Source: Fibrobacter succinogenes subsp. succinogenes S85 (GTDB taxonomy: Bacteria > Fibrobacterota > Fibrobacteria > Fibrobacterales > Fibrobacteraceae). From it: a DNA stretch of 32,000 nt. The stretch is from the NCBI RefSeq assembly GCF_000146505.1, contig NC_017448.1:3120001-3152000 (forward strand), given 5' to 3'. Both the position numbers and the translations under genes were made by a program. Each line of letters starts with the position of its first letter. Positions within the stretch are counted from its first letter, which is position 1. Of the stretch, positions 20,386-32,000 are shown one piece after another. The notes beneath the pieces were generated by a model, which was not told the origin of the DNA, made no database searches, and was given only the letters and a program-made list of their open reading frames with translations.

Positions 20386-20501
20386 TTTTTTATTGTAAAG
20401 ATTGTGATTTTGGACAAAAATAGAAACCTAAATTGCGATTTTTCCCCTAAATAACATATATTATAAAACTACAAGAATTGCATGTTGAGGGGCGCAGTAT
20501 T

Positions 20502-21990
20502 ATGAACACATCCCGCCATACAAAAATACGGAGCGTTACGGTCCTCGTCGTTGCTGCATTGTTGCTTGAACTGACGACCGCAGTGCAGTACATTTCTACA
20601 CGCCGAGCCATTACCGCCCAAATTAAGGAAATGGCTAAGCAAGACCTTACTTCTGCAAATCGAACTTTTGAAGTCAAGGAAATTGCCGAAGCAGCCATTG
20701 CGGCTGTGCTGCCCGAAGTAGAACGTCTAATCGATACACAACAGCAAGATTCATTGCATATGGCGTTGCAACGAGTGGTTGCGAACCATCCTGAAATTGT
20801 CGGCGTCGATTTTGCCTATCGTGTGGGGAGTGATGGCCTTCGCGATGGGTATTTTACGTTTAGGGACGATGCGACCAACGAAATAAAAGACACCGTGATA
20901 GGATTTGACTATACGGAACGCACTTGGTACCGCGAGGGCTTGCATGGCAACGGTTCCTGGAGCGAACCGTACATGAGCCGCTATTACGTGGCGCTGATGT
21001 CTACATTTTCACGTCCTGTCCACGATCCTCAAGGTCGCGTCATTGCCGTTATTGGCGCCGATGTTCCGATGCGTGAACTCTCTTCGATGGCTGTGCAGCT
21101 GTACGATAACCAGCAGCGCTCGCTCATTCCTGTCATCATTCTTCAGCTTGTCGGCCTCTTTGTGCTTGGCTTTATCATGTACCGCAGCATCATCAGCGTC
21201 CGTAAGTTAAGCAAAGTCAGTGCCGAAAAAGACCTGATTAACAGGGAACTTGGCATTGCAAATGCGATCCAGACGGCGATGCTTCCGCCACCGCTGCCCG
21301 AAAGCGAATTCCTGAATATCGTTGGTAGTCAGGTCCCGGCAAAACAAGTGGGTGGCGATTTTTATGATTATTTTGTGCGTGACGGCAAGCTGTTCTTCAA
21401 TATTGGCGATGTCTGTGGCAAGGGAATCCCCGCTGCACTTGTCATGTCAATGACGCAGGCCGTGTTCCGCACGATTGCAACTAAAGTCGATGATCCATCT
21501 CACATTGTGATGGGAATGAACACGATGGCCAGTCGTGGAAATACGACGGGAATGTTTGCAACGCTTTTTGTTGGTGTGCTAGACCTTGCAACGGGGCGCC
21601 TGAGCTACTGCAATGCCGGCCATGAAAAGCCCATTATCATTACTGGACGTAATATGCGATATCTCGATGTTACCGCAAATATCCCTATCGGGGTCATGGA
21701 AGAAAAAAAAATACAATATCCAGGAATCGGTCATCGCTGCGGGCGATATGATCTTGCTCTATACGGATGGCCTCACCGAAGCCATGAACGCAAATGGAAA
21801 GCTGTTTGGATTGAAGCGCGTTGAAGAAACGATTTGTGGCGGTGGAAAAACTGGAGGCAATAGTGAACTCTCCGCATTTGCGGAACCGCAGCAACTGCTG
21901 GATACGATGTCACATGCGGTGTCCGAGTTTGTGAATGGCGCGGAGCAGAGCGATGACCTTACCATGCTTGTGATAAAGTACAAAGGGTAA
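20502..21990 (+). pseudogene. Cache-sensor / TM / PP2C (SpoIIE/RsbU-type) phosphatase interrupted by a +1 frameshift in an A9 run
   Basis: The Cache-like segment is ERTWYREG...VIAVIGADVPMRELS. The PP2C motifs are VGGDFYDY and GDVCGKGIPAAL in frame 0 and MILLYTDGLTEA...SDDLTMLVI in frame +1. The two frames meet at the A9 run at 21703-21711, and A8 would give a continuous ...GVMEEKKYNIQES.... Confidence 0.75.
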
Positions 21991-22007
21991 GGGATGAAAA
22001 TAAAAAT

Positions 22008-22034
22008 GCCTAAAATAGGGAAGCTATTTTAGGC
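22008..22034. terminator. Hairpin between convergent genes at the left edge of the AT-rich island
   Basis: GCCTAAAATA (22008-22017), loop GGGAAGC, TATTTTAGGC (22025-22034). Confidence 0.45.
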
Positions 22035-22052
22035 AAGGCGAGGTGTTGCCGT

Positions 22053-22316
22053 TTAAAACCAGTAGCGCTTCATCTTTTTCATGAACGCTGCGTCTACTGG
22101 CCATCCGGAAGCGTCTGGGATGACAGAGTCAATCGCGCAGTAAGGGCATAAAGCTGTCAGGTCTTCCCTGTCAATGCAGAAGTCTTCTACTTCTGATGCG
22201 GGGAATGTTTTGCAGCAAAAGAAGCAGCCGCACATCTGGGATCTTTTTACGAGCCCTCTGTTCTGGAAGGAAGCGGCGTGTGCCTTTTTGATAATCTCAG
22301 GCATGTTTCTAGTCAT
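22053..22316 (-). CDS. Small Cys-rich protein (87 aa) with a CxC...CC...CPxC pattern
   Basis: I prefer the ATG at 22316 (SD AGAGGA 7 nt upstream) to the track's TTG at 22364. MCGCFFCCKTF...TALCPYCAIDSVIP suggests a zinc-binding module. I cannot name the family with confidence. Confidence 0.5.
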   Translation of the reverse strand: MTRNMPEIIKKAHAASFQNRGLVKRSQMCGCFFCCKTFPASEVEDFCIDREDLTALCPYCAIDSVIPDASGWPVDAAFMKKMKRYWF

Positions 22317-22356
22317 ATAAGAATCCTCTATAAAAGTTTTCCCATGTTGGGAGTTT

Positions 22357-22611
22357 TTAGGCAATGCTGTTTTGAATCTTGCCGGATTGGATAAGAAATT
22401 CTCTTACGTAGCGATAGTAGTCTCTACAGAAGTTTGAAAAAGCTCTGGAATCGCTTGGTGTGCATGGAATAGAGAATATCTTATTTGCACCTTCTTCGAT
22501 GTGTCGCAAGATGACGTGCTTGCCGTGACGTGCGATTTCCCATTTTTTGGACTTTAAGATGTTTAGGACGAAATCGCGGATGTCTTTGTTGTTGGAAATG
22601 TAAGGCTGCAT
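22357..22611 (-). CDS. Small protein (84 aa), possibly HicA-like
   Basis: The SD AGGAGA lies 6 nt upstream. KWEIARHGKHVILRHIEEGANKIFSIPCTPSDSRA loosely follows the HicA pattern G-x-H...hxh...hP (from memory). The functional call is weak. Confidence 0.4.
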   Translation of the reverse strand: MQPYISNNKDIRDFVLNILKSKKWEIARHGKHVILRHIEEGANKIFSIPCTPSDSRAFSNFCRDYYRYVREFLIQSGKIQNSIA

Positions 22612-22652
22612 AGTGCTCTCCTGGGCTGAGGTTTGTTGGATGCCGAGTGAAT

Positions 22653-22668
22653 AGCGAAATGCGTGCCA
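22653..22668 (-). promoter_or_regulatory. Sigma54-like -24/-12 element
   Basis: The minus strand reads TGGCACGCATTTCGCT against the consensus TGGCACG-N4-TTGCW. Spacing between GG and GC is correct and there is one mismatch in the -12 box. It lies about 40 nt upstream of the ATG at 22611. Confidence 0.2.
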
Positions 22669-22748
22669 AATTTTTGAAATGGCTAAATATGGCGAAAAAC
22701 AGGCTTTGTGTAAGCGGAACTATATTTAGTAAGAAATATTTTTCACAA

Positions 22749-22768
22749 ACAAGAAATATTTTTCTTGT
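22749..22768 (-). terminator. Weak AT-rich hairpin downstream of the defence-like operon
   Basis: ACAAGAAA, a 4-nt loop, then TTTCTTGT, about 30 nt after the stop at 22800. The direct repeat AAGAAATATTTTT (22731-22743 and 22751-22763) overlaps it. Confidence 0.3.
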
Positions 22769-22799
22769 TATACTGGGTTTTGTGATTTGAAATAGAATG

Positions 22800-24590
22800 T
22801 TATTTCAAATTACTTTTAAAAGGCTCCCATTTTCCATGAAGTTTCATATCTTCGTCTTTGAAGAACCATTTTATGGTATTCCCGTTTCTGCTCCAACGAC
22901 TGTGACAGTTCCGGCACTCGAATAAGAAGTTATTTTCGGTAGAGCCCTTCGCCCTAGTAGCGTCAGCTTTACAGCAGGGACATTTTTGGATGAGGCTTAT
23001 TAGGGCGTTCCCGGTCTTGAGAATTTCTATGTCTTCATCGCGGTTTTTGCGATAGGTACTCAGGTCCCTTTTCTGGATTCTGTCAGTATGCTCTCTTTTA
23101 TCAACCTGCTTCTTGAATTCATTGTCGTCGTAACGATCGAGCAGGTATTTACCGTCTAGCATATTGGGGACAAGTTCCTTTATAAATCTATTCTGGGGCA
23201 CTTTGAACGGATACTGGCACATGAGCATTGCCCAAATCCACTGGAAAATAATCCTTTGGATTAGGAGTTTTGGGAAGATGGATTGCGGTGCTATGCCCAG
23301 TACCATATAGGCTTCGTTGTTTTTGAACATATCATGCAATATGGTAAAGTTGTCTTCGTCTTCGCTCAGGTAGGGGTTACATTGTGGATATACAAGGACC
23401 GATACATCGCCTGTATAGGGGTTAGACTCATTAAGGACGTTGTCGATATAGCAGCTTGTGGGTTTTGAGGTAACGAAAACAAAGCGCAGCTTTTTGCCGT
23501 TTGCTTCTAGTTCAAGGCTGTTGTAGGGTGTTTCTCTATATTCCGGCTTGATATAGTTCCAGCAATCCCAATCCATGTTTGTGGTTCTGAAATCTTCGAT
23601 GCACCTCTTGACGAATTCTTTTTCGTTATGCAGCAGCAGGACCTGTTCTTCTTTTTTTTCTGCCTTAGAAAGAGTTTTGATACGTGCACGCTTGACCTCT
23701 TTCTGTATCTTGGGTAAGTACCGGTAATGCTGGTTGTTCATCAGGACGTTTGTCATGATGTCGTGATTGATGTCCACTTCAACGTTGGGAAAGGTCTTAA
23801 GGTTACTGAACAGTAGCGTATTCCAAAAGGAGGATATGACGCGCTGCAGGTATTTTAGGAAATCGATAGTCCGCTTCAGCAGTTCTCTATTTTCCTTGAC
23901 TTTCTCGATGCTGTATTCCTTGAGTAGGGAACTCAGTTCCGATTCCATAGATAAGTAATCTACATAGCTGACTTCTTGGTAATACAACTCTATTTCATTA
24001 TAGGCGTTGTCGATATTCTTGAGTCTCTGCAATCGCTGGTTTATTAATGAAATTAGTATTTTGCAGAGTGTGAACATCAAGCGGTTTTCGTACGTTTCCC
24101 ATTTGTCGTCCCTGACTAAAGAAAGCAGACGCTGTGGGTGGACTCCGACAAACGAACGGTTTCTCCAGTCCTCGGAATGCCCTGCCAGATATTCAAGGGC
24201 GCGAGATGCGAATTTTTTGACACGGCTAGTTGGCTGCTTTATTTCCTCTTCCTTCAGGTCAAGAATTGGTCTGGCTACGGCCTCCTTTAGGTGAGTGAGA
24301 GGGTCGTTTCGCTTAATTTGGTCAATGTCTTCTTGTAGGAACGTTTCTAGCTGGTTGCGATCAAGGTCGTCGGGATTGTTGCACAGCGAAAAGAACGAAT
24401 CCTTGTCTTCGTCAAGCAGCCGAAATGCGGCAAGGATATCGTTGGTGATAGGCTCGGATTCCTTGACTTCGATGTCGTCAAAGTGGTAGATGACATTCCC
24501 CTTTTGCGCCTCCTCTCTGCTTAGGGCATAAAGGCCTCCACAATCGGGGTTGTCAATCTTGACATCCTTTTGCAAGAAGATATCGAACAT
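22800..24590 (-). CDS. McrC-like partner protein with a C-terminal 4-Cys zinc ribbon (CnuC-like candidate)
   Basis: 596 aa. Its start overlaps the upstream stop (TAATG). ETYENRLMFTLCKIL (aa 165-179) resembles the E. coli McrC segment DTLANRIIKSTLAIL as I recall it. MLDGKYLL (aa 477-484) resembles the McrC IVDAKYY (D/E)xK strand. CPCC-x18-CRNC lies at 22905-22982. Confidence 0.6.
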   Translation of the reverse strand: MFDIFLQKDVKIDNPDCGGLYALSREEAQKGNVIYHFDDIEVKESEPITNDILAAFRLLDEDKDSFFSLCNNPDDLDRNQLETFLQEDIDQIKRNDPLTHLKEAVARPILDLKEEEIKQPTSRVKKFASRALEYLAGHSEDWRNRSFVGVHPQRLLSLVRDDKWETYENRLMFTLCKILISLINQRLQRLKNIDNAYNEIELYYQEVSYVDYLSMESELSSLLKEYSIEKVKENRELLKRTIDFLKYLQRVISSFWNTLLFSNLKTFPNVEVDINHDIMTNVLMNNQHYRYLPKIQKEVKRARIKTLSKAEKKEEQVLLLHNEKEFVKRCIEDFRTTNMDWDCWNYIKPEYRETPYNSLELEANGKKLRFVFVTSKPTSCYIDNVLNESNPYTGDVSVLVYPQCNPYLSEDEDNFTILHDMFKNNEAYMVLGIAPQSIFPKLLIQRIIFQWIWAMLMCQYPFKVPQNRFIKELVPNMLDGKYLLDRYDDNEFKKQVDKREHTDRIQKRDLSTYRKNRDEDIEILKTGNALISLIQKCPCCKADATRAKGSTENNFLFECRNCHSRWSRNGNTIKWFFKDEDMKLHGKWEPFKSNLK

Positions 24591-27037
24591 TAGGCGCCTC
24601 GTTTCTTTGCTGCGATGTCCTGGTCAATGAGCCTGATGGTTGCCGAGTTGTCGTCTAGTTTTATATTTTTTTGAATTTCTTCTTTAAGTTTTACTAGAGA
24701 ATCTTCCTGCACGCCAAATAGACCCGTGATTTTGCCTTTTCGTACAATCTTTGTGGCAAGGAGATGGTCTAGAGCGAGTTCTTTGGACCCTCCTGCGGCA
24801 CAGACCACAGGAACGAAATTCCTGATTTGCCTTTCGAGACGGTTTCCGAAAGATACATCAAATTCCGACTTTAGTACATCCTTGAGGGAATGCATTTTTT
24901 CAGTGACCCAGGCAGCTTGCTGTTCTCCTTCATCTGATTCCTGTGCTTCGACAAATGCGTTTCTCAAATCCTCGGCGGACCAGTGGGCCGCACCTTGTCT
25001 TATCTTTTGGTAGGACGGTTTTTGAGTATTGCGCTCCATCACCATGACGTGGGCGCGGTCGTACGTCTTGTCGGCGAATTCCATGGTGGTTTCGTCATGG
25101 TTTGCGGTGCCGATAAACCACACGTTGGGAGGAACAATGATTTTTTCATTTTGGAGGTATTTGGGCCAACGGTCTGATTCCATAGTTTCTTTGGGCATTC
25201 CCGAAAGCAGCTCAACTGTTAGGGGATCAAATATGGAGCTATTTGCTTGCTCCATTGCTGAAATGAAGTCTGCAAAATATTGTTCGGGATGTGACAAGTT
25301 CATTTCGTCGAGAATTAGGAAAAATAGGCGGTTTTTGAACTGAGGCGTAGATGCGGTATAGAGCCCCTTGGAGAAGGGTTTTTCGTAGAACTTCTTTTCG
25401 AAGGCATTGTAGTAACCCAGCAAATCCTGGTTGTCGCGCCATCCGGCCTGAACAGGGATTATGCAGCTACAGGAACCGTTATCCTTCTCTGACTTGCTAC
25501 CATCGGAATTATCTCCAACGATAGAAGCGAACGCTTGTGCTAATTTGGTCTTGCCTGTTCCGCTAATACCCTGTAGTAAAATGAGGCGGCTCATGGCTAG
25601 GCCACCAACAAACAGTTGCAGAGTTTCGGGTGTATAGAAAAGGTGGGGCTGATATTGCGTCAACTGGTAGCCGACTGCATTCACGAATTCTTTAAGGTCA
25701 CCGGAATTTTGGGTGAAACTGATGTATTCGCGGTTGCATCTGCTATCGATGTTCTTGAATTCAGCAAAAATGTCCTTATTCTGGTCTTTTGCGGTAAGCT
25801 CATCGAGCTCTTTACGCAATTGGTTTTGTGCTTCTTTGAGAGCCGCGTTGTGCGTTTCCAAAGTTTTATTTAAAGCAATTAAACCTTCTGTGTCTACAAT
25901 TTTTCTTCGATAATCCATTACCTGTTTAGAGAGCGCATTCTTTTCGGCGATGGCTGATTCGCATTGGTCTTTGAAACTCTGCAAAGCATCTTCCATCTCC
26001 TGCTGGTGTTCCGGGCTCCAGGCAGAATTAAGTTCCAACTTGAGAGTTGCATTTTTATTGCGAAGATTGTTTATCAACTCCTTGGCCTCTTCGGCACTCA
26101 TCCCATCGAGCTGTGACTTGATATCCTTGTAGCTCTTTAATTGCTTTTGCAGGTTCTTATTTTCTTCATTCAAGTCTTTAATTTGATTTTCGAAGGATGC
26201 CTTGCTTTGTGCGAGTCTGTTATCATACTCAAGTTGAATCTCTTCCCTGATTTCATCAAATGCCTTTTTCCTGTTTTCATATTCCGTTTTCTCAAGAATG
26301 CATTTTTCTTGCTCTTTGCTTAAAGAGGCGAGTTTGTTTTTGTAATCTTCAGATTGCTTTTGCAGCGAGTTTCTTGTTGATTCCAGATCTTTATTGAGTT
26401 TTTCGGTAATCTCATTTTTCCATTTGGTCTCGTTTGCGATAAAGCCTGCATCGGCTTCGGCTTCTCTTTGCTTAATCTGAGCTTTAAGCCCTTCTAGGCG
26501 TTCGTCTTCTTTTTTGTTTGCGTCTTCTTTTATCTGAGCCTTGCCTTCTCTTTCGGTAACATCGTCCTCGCGTTTTTTTGCTTCACCTTCTCTTTCGTTA
26601 AGTTTGTTTTCGCGTTTATTTAGTCCATCTTCTCTGTCTTTAAGCTCGCTTTCCTTGTCTTCTTGCTCTTTAGATGTTTGTCCTAAATCTGCAATTTTGG
26701 TATCATAACCTTTTTTGGCTTTGTCGCAATCTTCCTTGGCAATCTTGTACAAGCCAATTACATCGTTGAGCTCATTTTGCAGAGCCTTAAGAGTTTCTTT
26801 TTCTTCGTCGGAAAGCTTGTTCTCTGAAGGAATTAGATTTTTGATTTTATCCAATATAGATTCTTTGGGCATGTTGATTTCTGGCGAAGCGTCGTCAACA
26901 TTAGATATGGCGGGAGCACTTTCAACAGAGGCCTTTATCGGGGTGAAAATGCTGTTCATGTCGTCTATGCTTATGGGGGCATGACGCTGAGGTGTAGAAG
27001 GTTGGTTTTTGTTCTTGTTTTTATTTTTCTTGCTCAT
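24590..27037 (-). CDS. Coiled-coil McrB-family AAA+ GTPase (CnuB-like candidate)
   Basis: 815 aa. It has a K/N-rich N-terminus, and aa ~75-430 are E/K/Q/L-rich with almost no Pro, predicting a coiled coil. Walker A is GISGTGKT (25547-25570), Walker B is LILDEMN (25298-25318), and VWFIGTANHDETT matches the McrB GTMNTAD-type specificity motif. Confidence 0.8.
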   Translation of the reverse strand: MSKKNKNKNKNQPSTPQRHAPISIDDMNSIFTPIKASVESAPAISNVDDASPEINMPKESILDKIKNLIPSENKLSDEEKETLKALQNELNDVIGLYKIAKEDCDKAKKGYDTKIADLGQTSKEQEDKESELKDREDGLNKRENKLNEREGEAKKREDDVTEREGKAQIKEDANKKEDERLEGLKAQIKQREAEADAGFIANETKWKNEITEKLNKDLESTRNSLQKQSEDYKNKLASLSKEQEKCILEKTEYENRKKAFDEIREEIQLEYDNRLAQSKASFENQIKDLNEENKNLQKQLKSYKDIKSQLDGMSAEEAKELINNLRNKNATLKLELNSAWSPEHQQEMEDALQSFKDQCESAIAEKNALSKQVMDYRRKIVDTEGLIALNKTLETHNAALKEAQNQLRKELDELTAKDQNKDIFAEFKNIDSRCNREYISFTQNSGDLKEFVNAVGYQLTQYQPHLFYTPETLQLFVGGLAMSRLILLQGISGTGKTKLAQAFASIVGDNSDGSKSEKDNGSCSCIIPVQAGWRDNQDLLGYYNAFEKKFYEKPFSKGLYTASTPQFKNRLFFLILDEMNLSHPEQYFADFISAMEQANSSIFDPLTVELLSGMPKETMESDRWPKYLQNEKIIVPPNVWFIGTANHDETTMEFADKTYDRAHVMVMERNTQKPSYQKIRQGAAHWSAEDLRNAFVEAQESDEGEQQAAWVTEKMHSLKDVLKSEFDVSFGNRLERQIRNFVPVVCAAGGSKELALDHLLATKIVRKGKITGLFGVQEDSLVKLKEEIQKNIKLDDNSATIRLIDQDIAAKKRGA

Positions 27038-28482
27038 TTGTATGCCTCGTGTAAAATATCTAACTGTTTTTCAATTCTGTTGTAAATATCAATGTAGGGG
27101 TATGGAATAGGTTTTCTGTTTGTGTTAAAATGACCGTAGGTGTTGCGCGTGTCCACCAGTTCAAGAATGAATTTAAGGTCGTCGCTCAATGACCCGTTTT
27201 TTTCCAGTCTTGCCATAAACCAAGCTAGTGGGTTTTGGGGATGATAAAGGTAAAAGATAAGATGCCTAATGAGTAGTGACTTAAGAGAAGGCTTCCTTCG
27301 AGTCATACTCCCCCATACATCATCGTTTGTCAATTTTTTCTTGATGTCTTCGTCCAGTTCTAGATTGCGCATCTTTAGGCCGCCTTCCAAGTAGTAATGG
27401 CGATCTAAATCTCTTTTGAGAGCAACCTTTTTGAGCTCATCGTTAAAGGGCGTGTTTTTTGTTCTAAGGATGCTTTCGTACATGTTTTGCATTCTAGTAA
27501 GGAATGCATCGCCTAGATCAAGCGAGTTGTCTGTATCGTCGGTAAGAAGGTCTTTTAAAACAAAGAATCTGCAAATTTCAATAATAATGTCTTCTTCAAA
27601 ATGTGGGTATCTGCCTTGAATACGATCTTGAAGCGTAATGGGAATCTCTATTGATTTAATTCCTAAAAAAGCTCCCATTTTTTCATTTTGTTCAAGGGCT
27701 GTATCTAGTTCGTTTTTGAGGAACTCCATTGGAATTTTGGACTGTTCTTCTAGCATGTCAATGCATTGAAAGTCTTCGCCTTCAGAAATTTTTTTGACCT
27801 TGACAAGCAGAAAATTGCATATTTCAGGTTCTTGGTTCCGCTTCTCAATGGAAATTATTTTATCGGGTTGCTCAATGTAGCTCGCCTTGATGTCATTGTA
27901 GTCGGACAAGGCAATATCGCAGTCGATTTGCTGGTATTCCTTCCACATATTGTAAATGTCTTCTTCCGAAATGTCTGTTGAGTTTTCTCTAACTTTGTTG
28001 GTGCGTGGGTACACAATAAACGGCTTGATGTTGCAGGGCATACCCTTGGACCCGCCGGCAATAGTGATTCCTTTTTCGTTTTGTTGGTAATCAATGGACG
28101 TGAGTTCCCCATTCATTAGGGGGTGTGGAATTAATTGTCCTGTCAACATGGATTGTAACACTACGATTCGACTTTTTTTGATTGTGGTCTCCGTGCAGGA
28201 GACTCCTTCTGGTATGTGCCACTTGTCAATCCCTTTTGTGACTTTCTGCTTGAGGTCGTGTTCAAGAATATAGCGAATTAGGGCCTCATCTAGATTGGTC
28301 AATTCATGGAGCTCTTGGACAGTCTTGTCTCCGGTCAGGAGAAGGTTTATGATTAGATCCGAAAAAAAGTTTTCGGGGATATTTGCTTCTGCTACCAGAA
28401 TATCCCATACAATGACAGGCAAGGTGAAATAATCACCCTTGGAGAGTTCACTTGAATTGCAAAATAAATTAGCAATTTCCAT
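27034..28482 (-). CDS. Protein with a C-terminal HEPN-type Rx4H motif (putative RNase)
   Basis: I prefer the ATG at 28482 (SD GAGGA, 1 nt after the helicase stop) to the track's TTG at 28503. LELVDTRNTYGHFN (R..H at 27130-27147) lies in a helical C-terminal region, and the N-terminus looks wHTH-like (TVQELHELTNLDEALIRYIL). The stop overlaps the next start (ATGA). Confidence 0.6.
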   Translation of the reverse strand: MEIANLFCNSSELSKGDYFTLPVIVWDILVAEANIPENFFSDLIINLLLTGDKTVQELHELTNLDEALIRYILEHDLKQKVTKGIDKWHIPEGVSCTETTIKKSRIVVLQSMLTGQLIPHPLMNGELTSIDYQQNEKGITIAGGSKGMPCNIKPFIVYPRTNKVRENSTDISEEDIYNMWKEYQQIDCDIALSDYNDIKASYIEQPDKIISIEKRNQEPEICNFLLVKVKKISEGEDFQCIDMLEEQSKIPMEFLKNELDTALEQNEKMGAFLGIKSIEIPITLQDRIQGRYPHFEEDIIIEICRFFVLKDLLTDDTDNSLDLGDAFLTRMQNMYESILRTKNTPFNDELKKVALKRDLDRHYYLEGGLKMRNLELDEDIKKKLTNDDVWGSMTRRKPSLKSLLIRHLIFYLYHPQNPLAWFMARLEKNGSLSDDLKFILELVDTRNTYGHFNTNRKPIPYPYIDIYNRIEKQLDILHEAYK

Positions 28483-28483
28483 A

Positions 28484-31400
28484 TTATTTTTCCTCGTCTG
28501 CAAGTTTAATAAATTCTTTTAAAGCGGGAACTTCCTCTTGTGCTTTTTCTGTTTCATACATTTTTCTATTTCCTACAATCACAAGGAGTTTCTTTTGACG
28601 AGAGAAAGCGACGTTTAGACGGTTTTCTGATTTGAGAAAGCCGAAGTTGTTCCTGTCGTTGCTGCGAACAACAGAGAAGAATACGATATCAAATTGCCGC
28701 CCTTGGAACGCGTCGATTGATCCGATTTCTAGATGCTTGTTGTCAATTTTTTTCTTGAGTTCTGCATCTGACTTAGCAATTTTATCAATGAGTCGTGTTT
28801 GTGCACTGTATGAGGCGATAACACCGATAGTTTCGTCAGTTTCCTTGATAATTTCCTTTATGCGCTTAATAATTAGCTCGGCTTCAGCCTCGTTCGTTTT
28901 GCTTATTTTCCCAGATTCCTTGCTATCGACATTTTCCCAAACCGCACACTTGCAATCTCCATTTTTCTTAGTGTATCTTGAAACATGATGAATGCAGTCA
29001 TTGGGATTTTTGCCGGTTTGAATATGTGTCTCGTCTCCGTAAAAATTTCGACTTACAAAGTCGCTTAATTTTTGCGGCATACGATATTGAGTATCGAGAG
29101 TTACCGTGCGTACAATGCCATCATTTCGTTCTGTTTTTAAATAATCCCATAAAGATTCGAATAGAGACTTTTCCATAAAGCCCTTCAATTCTTCGAACCG
29201 TTCCCTAGAATCATTGCTGCATTCCATTTGCTCTAGGATATCTTGATCAACAAGTTGGGGGAGTTGCTTGTGGTCGCCAACTAGTATAACTTTTTTTCGG
29301 GCTAAGGTGATGGGTATGAATAGGTCAAGAGGATTTGCTCGAGCAGCTTCATCGATGATGACGTAATCAAACTCAAAGTTTTTCTTACCAAGAAGCCTTA
29401 CAAAAGATTCACTTTTTGATTGCTGTACTGTTGCCGCATAGGTCATGGCGTAACGGAGCATTGCGTTTCTGATGGATTTGAATCCGACATTTTCCTTATA
29501 GCTGTTTAGAACAATCAGTTTTTGTAGGTCGGTTTGCCTGATGCGTTCTCTGATGTTGGGCTCAATGGTCGTGTCGATATAATCCTTTAGAATTGTGAAC
29601 AGCTGATTGTCAAACGAATCTGTTGGATTGGGAACCATTTGCTCAATGCATTTGTTTCTGAGTTCTTCAACCCAGTCAAGGTCTTCTTGGCTAGGTGTCG
29701 AATTCGCTAGTTTCTTTAGCTGATCGTACCCTTTTTCCAAGGCGTAACAATTCAAGGAATCCTTGCGCAAATCGTAGTATTCCAACACATGCTCAATCAT
29801 TCTCTTGCCGTCGTCATTGAATCCTGTGCTGGTTGTTCTTAATCCCATTAGGCATTGGTAGAATTTATTGTTTATTTGCTTGACTTGGAATTTCTTTTTG
29901 AATTCCTTAAGAGTATCCACTTCTGACGGAGAAAGGATGCTGTTTGTGACGGCAAGATTGATGATTTCTTGTAGTAGGTTTCGTATTTCGTAAGAAGAGC
30001 TTGCAGCGCTTAGTGCATTAAGGCTTATTTGCAATTTTTCGTATTCGATGTATTGCGTGTCGGACTGTAACTTATTTATCTGTTCATCAATTTTTTTTGC
30101 GGTATCTTCTTGCCATTTCTGGAGTCCTCTGAAGATTTGTTCCTTGTCCTTTTGTTCCCCATAAAAGCGAAATACGGGAAGTCCCCAAATTGAGCTTCCG
30201 TCAGCCACATTATCAACAGCTACGTGTTGAAAACTTGTCAATAATATGCTAGGCATTTTTTCGGGATGCTTGGGGTCTATCGATTGTAGATATTTTTGTA
30301 ATGCGTTGATAACGCTTGTCTTTCCTGTTCCGGGAGGTCCTTGGATGAGGGCTATGTCTGGTGTGTTCAGACAAACCTTTAGTGCCCTTTTTTGTGCTTC
30401 ATTGGGTCTTCTGTTACCGAATGCCGCTTCAATTTTTAGATCGTTCAGCCTTTTGGGGACGGCTGCGGAGCCGAAGGAGGGGAGCGTTGTTTTATTTAAA
30501 ATGTCTGTAATAGATGCAATAGGAATGTTGCGTGTTCGGATGTTTTCTAGTGCTGCTGTTCTGCGTTTGGATGCTATAGACCATGGTTTAAAATCTATGG
30601 CGAATCCCTCAAGTTCTAGTTTTTCGCTATTGTCATATTTAGGTTTTCTTTCGCCCCATTTCCAGGAAACTGTTCTTGTTTTCTCGTCAATCCGTTCGTC
30701 GCAAATATTGTAACTCTTACGTTTCGAGAAAACGTAGATGGAATAAGAATTCTTTTGATTGGCGTTTAGCTGATCGTATATGTTCTTGAAATTTTCTATT
30801 TCTTCGGATTTGTTTTGAAGTGTTGCGCTGCAGTTTTCTCCTTTGGCAGTTATCTTTTCAATGCGAAGAATGCCAGACTGGATTTTATAATCTTCCAGCA
30901 TCTGCGCGTCAACCTGATTATACTTTTCCCAAAGGTTTATGATGGAGTTTGGGTCTGCGGCTTGTTTAGCTAATTGTGCATTCAAAATGGGATCGCTTAC
31001 GATGGCTTCCTGTTCTGATACGAATCGAATGTGCGCAATCCCTTTTTGTACATTCAATTTTTTTTGAGGAGACTTTTTTAGATTGCTGACAAAGAGATAC
31101 TCCTTGCCGTCTACCTTCTTACTTTCGATATTTGCAACATAATTGCATCCGAGCCATCCTCCTTCCAAGTTTGAGGTATTGCTCAGAATTCTAAAGAATA
31201 AGTACGAATTTTCAGTGGTTTGGAAAAGAAACTCTTTTTTGAACCATTCTAGAGCCTGTTCTGTTTCTTTAAAACCATATTTCTTAGTGACTTCTATGAG
31301 CCTGTAGGTTGGAATGACGATATTGCATGTCTGTTCGGTGTTTCCTATAATGGTCGGTCCGCCAAAATCCCACTTGTTTAGGGTCACCTCGTATTTTTTA

Positions 31401-31630
31401 TCTGCTTGTTTTACGGAATCAACAATGTAGAGTGACTCCTGATTGTATGGAAGTGAATTTTGTGGCCAGAATATCCTTTCTGGATGATTGTAGTTTTTGA
31501 AATATCCGCTTGGGGTGAATTCCAAAACATCGTGTTTGGCGATTTCGAATTTCCCGTCATTGTCAAATATGGCGTCTATGACTTGTGCCGAAGAATTGCA
31601 TGCAATGATATTTAGTTGCTCGTTATTCAT
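28484..31630 (-). CDS. SF1B Upf1/DNA2-like helicase (AAA_11/AAA_12 type) with a roughly 420-aa uncharacterised N-terminal region (CnuH-like candidate)
   Basis: 1048 aa. Motif I is GPPGTGKT (30317-30340), followed by II VIIDEAARA, III VILVGDHKQLPQ, IV LDTQYRMPQ, V SIDAFQGRQFDIVFFSVVRSN and VI RLNVAFSRQKKLLVIVG. An insertion of about 320 aa lies between motifs I and II. Confidence 0.85.
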   Translation of the reverse strand: MNNEQLNIIACNSSAQVIDAIFDNDGKFEIAKHDVLEFTPSGYFKNYNHPERIFWPQNSLPYNQESLYIVDSVKQADKKYEVTLNKWDFGGPTIIGNTEQTCNIVIPTYRLIEVTKKYGFKETEQALEWFKKEFLFQTTENSYLFFRILSNTSNLEGGWLGCNYVANIESKKVDGKEYLFVSNLKKSPQKKLNVQKGIAHIRFVSEQEAIVSDPILNAQLAKQAADPNSIINLWEKYNQVDAQMLEDYKIQSGILRIEKITAKGENCSATLQNKSEEIENFKNIYDQLNANQKNSYSIYVFSKRKSYNICDERIDEKTRTVSWKWGERKPKYDNSEKLELEGFAIDFKPWSIASKRRTAALENIRTRNIPIASITDILNKTTLPSFGSAAVPKRLNDLKIEAAFGNRRPNEAQKRALKVCLNTPDIALIQGPPGTGKTSVINALQKYLQSIDPKHPEKMPSILLTSFQHVAVDNVADGSSIWGLPVFRFYGEQKDKEQIFRGLQKWQEDTAKKIDEQINKLQSDTQYIEYEKLQISLNALSAASSSYEIRNLLQEIINLAVTNSILSPSEVDTLKEFKKKFQVKQINNKFYQCLMGLRTTSTGFNDDGKRMIEHVLEYYDLRKDSLNCYALEKGYDQLKKLANSTPSQEDLDWVEELRNKCIEQMVPNPTDSFDNQLFTILKDYIDTTIEPNIRERIRQTDLQKLIVLNSYKENVGFKSIRNAMLRYAMTYAATVQQSKSESFVRLLGKKNFEFDYVIIDEAARANPLDLFIPITLARKKVILVGDHKQLPQLVDQDILEQMECSNDSRERFEELKGFMEKSLFESLWDYLKTERNDGIVRTVTLDTQYRMPQKLSDFVSRNFYGDETHIQTGKNPNDCIHHVSRYTKKNGDCKCAVWENVDSKESGKISKTNEAEAELIIKRIKEIIKETDETIGVIASYSAQTRLIDKIAKSDAELKKKIDNKHLEIGSIDAFQGRQFDIVFFSVVRSNDRNNFGFLKSENRLNVAFSRQKKLLVIVGNRKMYETEKAQEEVPALKEFIKLADEEK

Positions 31631-32000
31631 TTTTCACCCCAATATTTGAACAGGATGACGCTCCTGAATTTCAAGGAATCGTTTTCTTCGGAATCATCAT
31701 GTATAATTTTTGTTCGTGTGTATTCGGGGAAAAGGATTTGGTACTGTTTGCCTTCCTTGACGTCGATAAGGAGGGAAATCCCCTTTTTCAGGGTGCAGCT
31801 CTTTGTGTTTTTTTCTTTGGGAATGTTTAATGTTACCTTCAGTTCCTTCTGATCGGTCAGTAGTATGCTCAGTTGCTGCTTGGATACGTTGAATGATGCT
31901 TCGATGTTTGCCGATTTGGTTTCTGCTATGGGAATGTTCATTAGGGTAGATGTATCCTCTAGCAGGTACGCGGGATGGCTGAAAACTGTGTCTTGAATTT
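31627..32000 (-). CDS. Beta-rich hypothetical ORF, possibly truncated at its 5-prime end by the window edge
   Basis: The frame stays open from the ATG at 31941 to position 32000 (...IQDTVFSHPAYLLEDTSTL-MNIP...), so the true start may lie outside the window. The stop overlaps the helicase ATG (ATGA at 31627-31630). Confidence 0.5.
   Translation of the reverse strand, partial: IQDTVFSHPAYLLEDTSTLMNIPIAETKSANIEASFNVSKQQLSILLTDQKELKVTLNIPKEKNTKSCTLKKGISLLIDVKEGKQYQILFPEYTRTKIIHDDSEENDSLKFRSVILFKYWGEK

Follow-up and report, generated by a model that had tools for sequence, protein, structure and literature searches.

Coiled-coil nuclease tandems (CoCoNuTs) are abundant McrBC-derived defence systems that are predicted to target RNA and are almost uncharacterised biochemically. 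Their Type II was defined by Bell, Sahakyan, Makarova, Wolf and Koonin (eLife 2024; PMC11090510) as the set CnuH-CnuE-CnuB-CnuC accompanied by a TerY-P module. In that definition, CnuB belongs to a clade of McrB-like GTPases that are fused to a long coiled coil and have, in place of NxxD, the shorter motif NxD, with E or D as its usual next residue. Upstream are encoded the UPF1-like CnuH, which has an insertion after Walker A and N-terminal SmpB-like OB and RelE-like (RTL) domains, and CnuE, in which an elongated winged helix-turn-helix (wHTH) and a coiled coil are joined to a single HEPN domain; the reading frames often overlap. CnuC has an N-terminal Ig-like beta-sandwich, DUF2357 interrupted by a coiled-coil insertion, a PD-(D/E)xK nuclease domain that is inactivated and a zinc ribbon with two or three CPxC motifs, and it has no Hsp70-like unit. 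The TerY-P triad (VWA, PP2C and STK-ZnR, a Ser/Thr kinase with a zinc ribbon) is usual in Type II and not part of its core; it is associated with various restriction systems, and a variant form of it is a stand-alone defence system (PMC11090510). In Pseudomonas aeruginosa, the seven-gene Obs locus protects against PP7 and LeviOr01, both of them RNA phages, and against the DNA phage MPK7 (bioRxiv 10.64898/2026.04.06.716636). Given the definition of Bell et al. and the Obs preprint, systems of this kind are already known and have first experimental support. Here, we analyse a 32,000-nt stretch of the Fibrobacter succinogenes subsp. succinogenes S85 chromosome (NC_017448.1, positions 3,120,001 to 3,152,000; hereafter the window), in which an open reading frame (ORF) at 24590-27037 on the minus strand encodes an 815-aa putative GTPase of the NxD clade with a helical N-terminal arm. 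We conclude that this protein is very probably the McrB-family GTPase subunit, CnuB, of a Type II CoCoNuT anti-phage system, encoded in a horizontally acquired TerY(VWA)-PP2C-STK-CnuH-CnuE-CnuB-CnuC cassette. An earlier note on this DNA, made from the letters alone, had delimited the same 815-aa frame and had read it as an McrB-type GTPase with a coiled coil in place of its reader domain; our results support that interpretation as essentially right, and what the note did not see is that the architecture is that of the already named CnuB of CoCoNuT. All features of the cassette described below lie on the minus strand, and their coordinates are those of the window.

The three NTPase motifs listed in the earlier note, GISGTGKT, LILDEMN and IGTANHDE (aa 642-649), are present in the C-terminal half of the protein. 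A homologue search retrieved 209 relatives of CnuB, and the conservation values and lengths given in this paragraph refer to the best 120 of these 209. The full-length homologues are 766-916 aa long, with 394-554 aa ahead of the NTPase domain. The Walker A motif (aa 490-497; 25547-25570), which aligns to the McrB P-loop GPPGVGKT, has a core that is identical in 120/120 homologues, and the D-E-x-N core of the Walker B motif (aa 574-580; 25298-25318), which aligns to IIDEIN of McrB, is likewise kept in 120/120. The third motif had been described as an NxxD-type signature, and this has to be corrected: CnuB carries N646-H-D648-E649 (25091-25102), that is, N-x-D followed by E, one residue shorter than the canonical NxxD of McrB, within a GTANxDE[TS]T sequence found in 120/120 homologues. 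N646 aligns on the Asn of the McrB NTAD motif, while the Asp is reached one residue earlier than in McrB, so that the motif is of the NxD(+E) variant. A strictly conserved NxD motif is the feature by which Bell et al. define the CnuB clade, most often with E or D after it.

Profile comparisons favoured an McrB-type NTPase domain. When a 21-sequence profile of the C-terminal domain was compared with the Protein Data Bank (PDB), the three best matches were all E. coli McrB (E=6.5e-7 to 1.6e-6), with alignments that spanned the region from Walker A to the signature motif; the best non-McrB match (E=0.0096) covered Walker A only, and T. gammatolerans McrB was matched at E=0.014. Thus, when we asked whether the domain would instead cluster with AAA_5 proteins other than McrB, the profile preferred McrB. 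Additionally, an hhalign comparison of the CnuB domain with E. coli McrB gave a probability of 97.2% (E=4.4e-11), and Pfam AAA_5 matched 17/21 family members.

Several observations weigh against this assignment. As a single sequence, CnuB fails the Pfam AAA_5 model (E=0.026, Walker A only), receives no family in an NCBIfam scan and matches McrB only marginally in the PDB (E about 0.5); since single-sequence searches of these three libraries reach no further than the level of Walker A, a family profile is needed to see the relationship. A Foldseek search with the full-length CnuB model ranked BchI, MCM, dynein, MoxR, NorQ and RavA above McrB, which came at rank 30; the matches are generic AAA+ relatives with low TM-scores. 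Fold comparison alone therefore does not single out McrB, and the modelled AAA+ fold is consistent with McrB without discriminating in its favour. According to Bell et al. (PMC11090510), none of the NxD GTPases has been characterised biochemically. The partner proteins add further points of the same sign. CnuC and E. coli McrC were related by hhalign with a probability below 1%, with 40- as well as 132-sequence profiles, and Foldseek found nothing significant for CnuC in the PDB (best E=0.22; McrC, 6hz4_M, E=0.81). E. coli McrC itself matches the Pfam family McrBC (PF10117) and not DUF2357, so the link between CnuC and McrC rests on the literature that equates DUF2357 with the N-terminal domain of McrC. 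Finally, no SmpB or RelE domain was found by profile comparison with the PDB in the N-terminal 400 aa of CnuH, where Bell et al. saw these domains only by structure.

The gene context adds to the assignment to Type II. The locus combines a UPF1-like CnuH with an insertion after Walker A, a CnuE with a single HEPN domain, a CnuC with DUF2357 and a zinc ribbon, and TerY-P, of which the window holds the kinase C-terminus only and the full triad is seen on two related contigs, L084 and L001. The features that mark other types are absent here, namely the Type I-A insert, the CSD or YTH domains of Type I and, of Type III-A, the Hsp70 fusion, the second HEPN domain and the C-terminal HTH. In CnuB, the stretch from Walker B to NxD aligned with McrB without a large insert, and the C-terminal part of the protein was modelled by AlphaFold2 as AAA+ lid helices. 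As far as sequence can tell, every Type II feature that is open to such a test is found at this locus when it is compared with the published feature definition.

The N-terminal half of CnuB was modelled with AlphaFold2 as a monomer from an 87-sequence alignment (mean pLDDT 77). The first 56 residues (26870-27037; pLDDT 37-56) form a disordered, basic tail rich in K and N, as had been pointed out for its beginning (MSKKNKNKNKNQ). Tandem Repeats Finder detected in this tail a period-6 repeat, (AAGAAC)4 on the coding strand at 27005-27028, that encodes KNKNKNKN; it is an in-frame simple repeat whose copy number could vary without loss of frame. The tail is followed by a helical arm at aa 58-419 (25781-26866; pLDDT mostly 70-88), which the model shows as helices at aa 58-74, 77-299 (a single helix of 223 residues), 320-336 and 342-419; the loop at aa 300-319 is of low confidence, and the AAA+ domain begins at about aa 470. 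The composition described earlier for aa 75-430 was reproduced: the residues E, K, Q, L and N make up 55% of this region versus 34% of the C-terminal part, and P342 is its sole Pro.

A globular nucleic-acid-binding domain in aa 1-450 would have spoken against the earlier interpretation, and none was seen, the AlphaFold2 model of this part consisting of disorder and long helices. Pfam scans returned no domain in aa 1-417 and matched no CSD, YTH or HTH domain in CnuB. A helical arm in place of the reader domain is thus shown, and a coiled coil is plausible for parts of this arm: the best hydrophobic occupancy of the a/d positions ranges from 0.5 to 0.88 by segment and is good only in aa 85-112, 281-336 and 351-420.

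Within the arm, five Arg residues recur with a period of 7 at aa 135, 142, 149, 156 and 163 (26531-26635), exactly as the earlier note had it. Of 200,000 sequences obtained by shuffling aa 75-430, a fraction of 4.5e-5 showed such a series, so that chance does not account for it; for Glu, the run with this spacing has 7 members. The array of RE heptads (aa 135-169; 26531-26648) is a 42-nt unit present 2.5 times, which Tandem Repeats Finder delimited at 26544-26648 with 76% matches. Each unit corresponds to 14 aa, or two heptads, and the array reads, as protein, REDGLNKRENKLNE / REGEAKKREDDVTE / REGKAQI. The RE heptad run is thus a lineage-specific duplication, and the perfect spacing of its RE pairs is due to the fairly recent, in-frame tandem duplication of the 42-nt unit. 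In the segment around it (aa 127-182), charged residues account for 66% and hydrophobic ones for 11%, or about one per heptad. Its i/i+3/i+4 salt-bridge score, a simple measure, lies only about 1.7 standard deviations above that of shuffled sequences, so that the RE stretch may be a single charged alpha-helix or a true coiled coil.

Downstream of this array, we identified a motif, RE[A/L]xAxAGF, present in the window as REAEADAGF at aa 191-199 (26441-26467). Over 87 homologues, R191 (90%), E192 (95%), A195 (94%), G198 (95%) and F199 (94%) are the only strongly conserved positions in aa 57-390. The array and the motif share one heptad register (163 + 28 = 191), and most homologues have at least one further RE seven residues upstream of the motif; since the motif is preceded by RE heptads in register, the Fibrobacter-type duplication amplifies the flank of a family-wide element. 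Bell et al. (PMC11090510) mention neither this motif nor Fibrobacter in their main text. The longer the distance from the N-terminus to AGF, the shorter, in general, is that from AGF to Walker A; the motif shifts within an arm whose total stays at about 470-520 aa, a negative correlation that may only reflect differences between clades. We also considered AGF as the apex of a symmetric antiparallel hairpin, which the flank lengths do not support (Spearman -0.54 over 133 homologues of mixed clades, which is weak evidence); the AlphaFold2 helix runs uninterrupted through the motif. A tentative suggestion, which we regard as doubtful at present, is that RE[A/L]xAxAGF, a small-residue patch with an aromatic residue, makes the arm more than an inert spacer and serves as a docking or hinge site for a helix of CnuC, CnuE or CnuH, and that the 42-nt duplication has amplified the RE heptads into a stretch resembling a single alpha-helix, with a repeat copy number that could set how far the arm reaches or how stiff it is.

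The cassette genes overlap or abut one another. The TerY-P Ser/Thr kinase is represented by its C-terminal 124 codons (31627-32000), in a frame that is open to the edge of the window and aligns with the C-terminus of a 484-aa Pkinase protein of L001. Its stop overlaps by 4 nt the start of the gene of CnuH (28484-31630), a UPF1-like superfamily 1 (SF1) helicase of 1048 aa with an N-terminal extension of about 400 aa and a large insertion after Walker A. The Pfam families AAA_11 (E=9.4e-30) and AAA_12 (E=2e-43) match this protein, the AAA_11 match stretching over 384 residues (aa 410-793) for 251 profile positions, and its best PDB relatives are Nam7/UPF1 (about 1e-27), followed by SMUBP-2 and SEN1. 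Two PADLOC models of the Mokosh protein MkoA also match CnuH, at E=3.5e-87 (PDLC03920) and 1.3e-83.

CnuE (27034-28503) is a 489-aa protein in which a wHTH and a coiled coil accompany one HEPN domain, whose RxxxxH motif reads R453-NTYG-H458; the true start of CnuE is probably Met8, at 28482, which would give a protein of 482 aa. With only 489 aa, CnuE has room for just one HEPN domain. R453 is invariant and H458 is conserved in at least 90% of 36 positional orthologues, and an R[ND]xxxH motif occurs in most of 49 loci. The wHTH family PF24409 matches 30/36 of the CnuE orthologues and HEPN_RiboL-PSP matches 4, and the CnuE of the window reaches E=0.023 against HEPN_Apea at aa 403-477. A profile of CnuE additionally matches a MarR wHTH and designed coiled coils in the PDB.

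The stop of cnuB and the start of the DUF2357 gene overlap, an arrangement of translational coupling. That gene encodes the McrC-like partner CnuC (596 aa; 22800-24590), in which a DUF2357-type region with a coiled-coil insertion (about aa 100-290) precedes an alpha/beta domain (about aa 340-480); a zinc ribbon with C537, C540, C559 and C562 forms the C-terminus. In the CnuC family, 13/21, 20/40 and 8/9 members match DUF2357 over residues of about 100-225; the best match has E=3.4e-7, and some scores exceed the gathering cut-off. The partner family comprises 711 representatives (50%-identity clusters) at E <=1e-3. The Cys residues of the zinc ribbon are invariant or nearly so, with CPCC537-540 and CRNC559-562 conserved. 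The AlphaFold2 model of CnuC is good only for aa 310-596, and its pLDDT is below 50 for aa 1-172, in the N-terminal part where the definition of Bell et al. would place the Ig-like domain. A profile search of CnuC against the PDB returned zinc ribbons and coiled coils only, no Hsp70 unit was matched in its 596 aa, and the weak, non-significant Foldseek matches include several PD-(D/E)xK nucleases. Across 40-132 homologues, aa 340-480 contain no invariant Asp, Glu or Lys, which indirectly suggests that a putative nuclease domain of CnuC is inactivated.

The last of these results bears directly on a different reading of CnuB, as a Type IV restriction GTPase directed at DNA, with the helical arm holding two DNA-bound complexes apart as a spacer or ruler and the partner cleaving DNA. 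An McrB-like domain beside an McrC-like partner would fit such an enzyme, as would the block of one DNA phage by Obs (bioRxiv 10.64898/2026.04.06.716636). We nevertheless consider this reading unlikely, given that neither Pfam nor AlphaFold2 places a DNA-binding domain in CnuB, that the alpha/beta domain of CnuC lacks invariant catalytic residues and has no significant match to a nuclease fold, and that, in the part of the operon that is visible, no nuclease motif is intact other than the RxxxxH of the HEPN domain. The delegation of target recognition to partner subunits, which the earlier note had proposed, is in line with this operon, with its helicase, wHTH-HEPN and McrC-like proteins, and with Bell et al. 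(2024).

The main rival takes CnuB for a chaperone-like AAA+ ATPase of the MoxR/RavA type that works with the VWA protein TerY, in the manner of BchI-BchD, NorQ-NorD and RavA-ViaA. It draws on the Foldseek ranking, in which BchI (E=4.9e-7), NorQ with the VWA domain of NorD, the MoxR-like 2r44 and RavA are the top matches, as well as on the VWA protein encoded in the cassette and on the matches of family members to the general AAA_5 model. The sequence profile, on the other hand, singles out McrB, with the next non-McrB match confined to Walker A and the hhalign result in agreement, and the invariant GTANxDE aligns on the signature Asn of McrB. The gene that directly follows and overlaps cnuB encodes a DUF2357 protein and not a VWA protein, and the VWA gene is grouped with those of PP2C and the kinase as the TerY-P triad. 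In view of these results, a MoxR/RavA-type role appears very unlikely. As a separate observation, the best structural neighbours of the modelled CnuB AAA+ domain (BchI, NorQ-NorD and RavA) use VWA partners, and contact between CnuB and TerY is a possibility. The long helical region adjoining a P-loop NTPase also recalls coiled-coil ATPases of the SMC/Rad50 kind, as in Lamassu LmuB or Wadjet, that would clamp DNA with an antiparallel hairpin. The chance of this is close to nil, for its NTPase domain is of the AAA+ and not of the ABC type, a point on which the fold already contradicts it; furthermore, aa 77-299 were modelled as one unbroken helix with no hairpin, and the flank lengths of AGF do not co-vary positively.

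For CnuB as the GTPase subunit of a Type II CoCoNuT, a sequence of events can be outlined that we infer from McrBC structures and from Bell et al. (2024). CnuB would form a hexameric ring, into which the DUF2357 stalk of CnuC would enter and stimulate GTP hydrolysis through the interface of the N-x-D and Walker B motifs. The helical arm, in place of a DNA-reading domain, may serve as an assembly scaffold in contact with coiled-coil segments of CnuC, CnuE and CnuH, with RE[A/L]xAxAGF as a candidate partner-docking or hinge site. In the Fibrobacter lineage, the 42-nt duplication would add length to the part of the arm that immediately precedes this motif and that is highly charged and poor in hydrophobic residues. 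GTPase activity would in this way be coupled to an RNA-directed helicase and an HEPN RNase effector, and the kinase/phosphatase module TerY-P could act as a phospho-switch.

Related cassettes are widespread. The metagenomic contig L084, 96% identical to the window over positions 22392-32000, carries VWA, PP2C and a full 482-aa Pkinase directly upstream of the helicase, and the same three genes are found directly upstream on L001, a contig of a Fibrobacter metagenome-assembled genome (MAG) that is 74% identical. A scan of GTDB representative genomes yielded at least 585 loci with relatives, of which 80 were retrieved. In about 50 of these 80, the gene order is TerY(VWA)-PP2C-STK-helicase, an ORF of about 500 aa with wHTH/HEPN, the GTPase and the DUF2357 protein; these loci span Planctomycetota, Alpha-, Beta- and Gammaproteobacteria, Myxococcota, Cyanobacteria, Actinomycetota, Bacteroidota and Verrucomicrobiota. 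The close homologues of CnuB carry the names Fibrobacter or Fibrobacteraceae, and the Pseudomonas-type loci L006 and L007 are 44-46% identical to CnuB in the GTPase domain. A group of Bacillota loci, with GTPases of about 505 aa and no helicase, belongs to other systems of the same clade. Two short CnuB-like genes, of 437 and 450 aa and about 1.6 kb apart, were observed in an Eubacteriales MAG (L060:9635-13864), where no helicase or CnuC homologue was detectable. Two CnuB homologues of 55% identity, P0035 and P0037, carry the precomputed Pfam entry PF27881.1, which never matched in our Pfam scans; it may be a new family that covers CnuB.

In blastn comparisons, the homology of the cassette ends at 22392 (L084) and 22371 (L001), in both cases inside an 84-aa HicA-like ORF (22357-22611; PADLOC HicA-like, E=2.9e-12) at the edge of the shared cassette. 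There is an 8-nt overlap between this ORF and one of 103 aa that is rich in Cys (CGCFFCC...CPYC) and matches no family, the two lying at 22053-22611 on the minus strand. With the homology ending inside the HicA-like ORF, the boundary of the island is placed there, and the HicA-like and Cys-rich ORFs may not be an ancestral pair. The GC content is about 0.40 over the cassette (22000-32000) versus about 0.50 in the flanking genes of 1-22000 (RecO, RecD2, CstA and Ppx/GppA), and the 96%-identical cassette has another downstream context (DUF4434, dxs) in L084-L086; both the low GC content and the differing context point to a horizontally mobile island. In the flank, at 20478-21990 on the plus strand, a sensor phosphatase (Cache/PDC sensor with SpoIIE/PP2C) is spread over two ORFs that overlap and differ in frame. 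One, of 448 aa, matches positions 2-113 of the SpoIIE profile and the other, of 125 aa, positions 110-191, which indicates a frameshift, as a pseudogene or a sequencing error. This phosphatase is unrelated to the PP2C of TerY-P.

The locus offers a clean, compact, seven-gene example of Type II in a Fibrobacter-like genome, in which the proteins of the family are all annotated as "hypothetical". Pfam and NCBIfam miss CnuB, CnuC and CnuE entirely; PADLOC gives no match for CnuE and CnuC, and for CnuB only PDC-M26A (E=2.1e-38), a model of the candidate system PDC-M26, of which no mention was found in the literature searched. Together with the MkoA label that PADLOC places on the helicase, these misses make it likely that such loci are under-annotated or mislabelled as partial Mokosh. 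What is added here to the published description is small: the origin of the RE heptads by duplication, the RE[A/L]xAxAGF motif, and the components that standard libraries miss or mislabel. The motif with its expandable RE flank is the one possibly new point, and it provides a concrete target for mutagenesis of the arm that may couple the GTPase ring to the helicase-HEPN effector.

CnuB resembles E. coli McrB (EcoKMcrBC; PDB 6hz4, 6ut6 and 7vsr) in its AAA+ core, which is alike from Walker A up to and including the signature Asn, and in having an adjoining partner gene with overlapping stop and start. The two differ at the N-terminus, where McrB has a domain that binds DNA with 5-methylcytosine and CnuB has about 360 aa of helix; in the signature motif, which is NTAD (NxxD) in McrB and NHD-E in CnuB; and in the partner, McrC being an active PD-(D/E)xK nuclease and CnuC lacking a conserved catalytic triad. 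The MoxR, RavA and BchI ATPases with VWA partners share the AAA+ clade by fold, and a VWA gene is present in this cassette as well, whereas they have neither the NxD signature nor a DUF2357 partner and are not preferred by the CnuB profile, which prefers McrB. With Mokosh, the likeness is that CnuH and MkoA (PDLC03920) are both UPF1-like SF1 helicases of defence systems; here, however, CnuH is followed by HEPN, McrB-like and McrC-like genes, MkoC is matched by nothing but the helicase (E=2.2e-27), and no other protein of the operon matches the Mokosh models.

The Obs system (obsA-obsG/cnuC) is likewise a seven-gene cassette and is, by its authors' description, strongly homologous to Type II CoCoNuT; it comes from another phylum, and its defence against phages has been shown experimentally. 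The closest likeness is to Type II CoCoNuT as defined in PMC11090510. As there, CnuB is an McrB-like GTPase with NxD(+E) and only coiled coil or helix N-terminally, and cnuB lies after cnuH and cnuE and before cnuC, downstream of TerY-P, in overlapping frames. The locus differs from the published set in its origin, a Fibrobacter-like lineage unmentioned in that paper's main text, and in its CnuB, which bears the 42-nt duplication of 2.5 copies, with five RE heptads in register, and the disordered tail rich in K and N.

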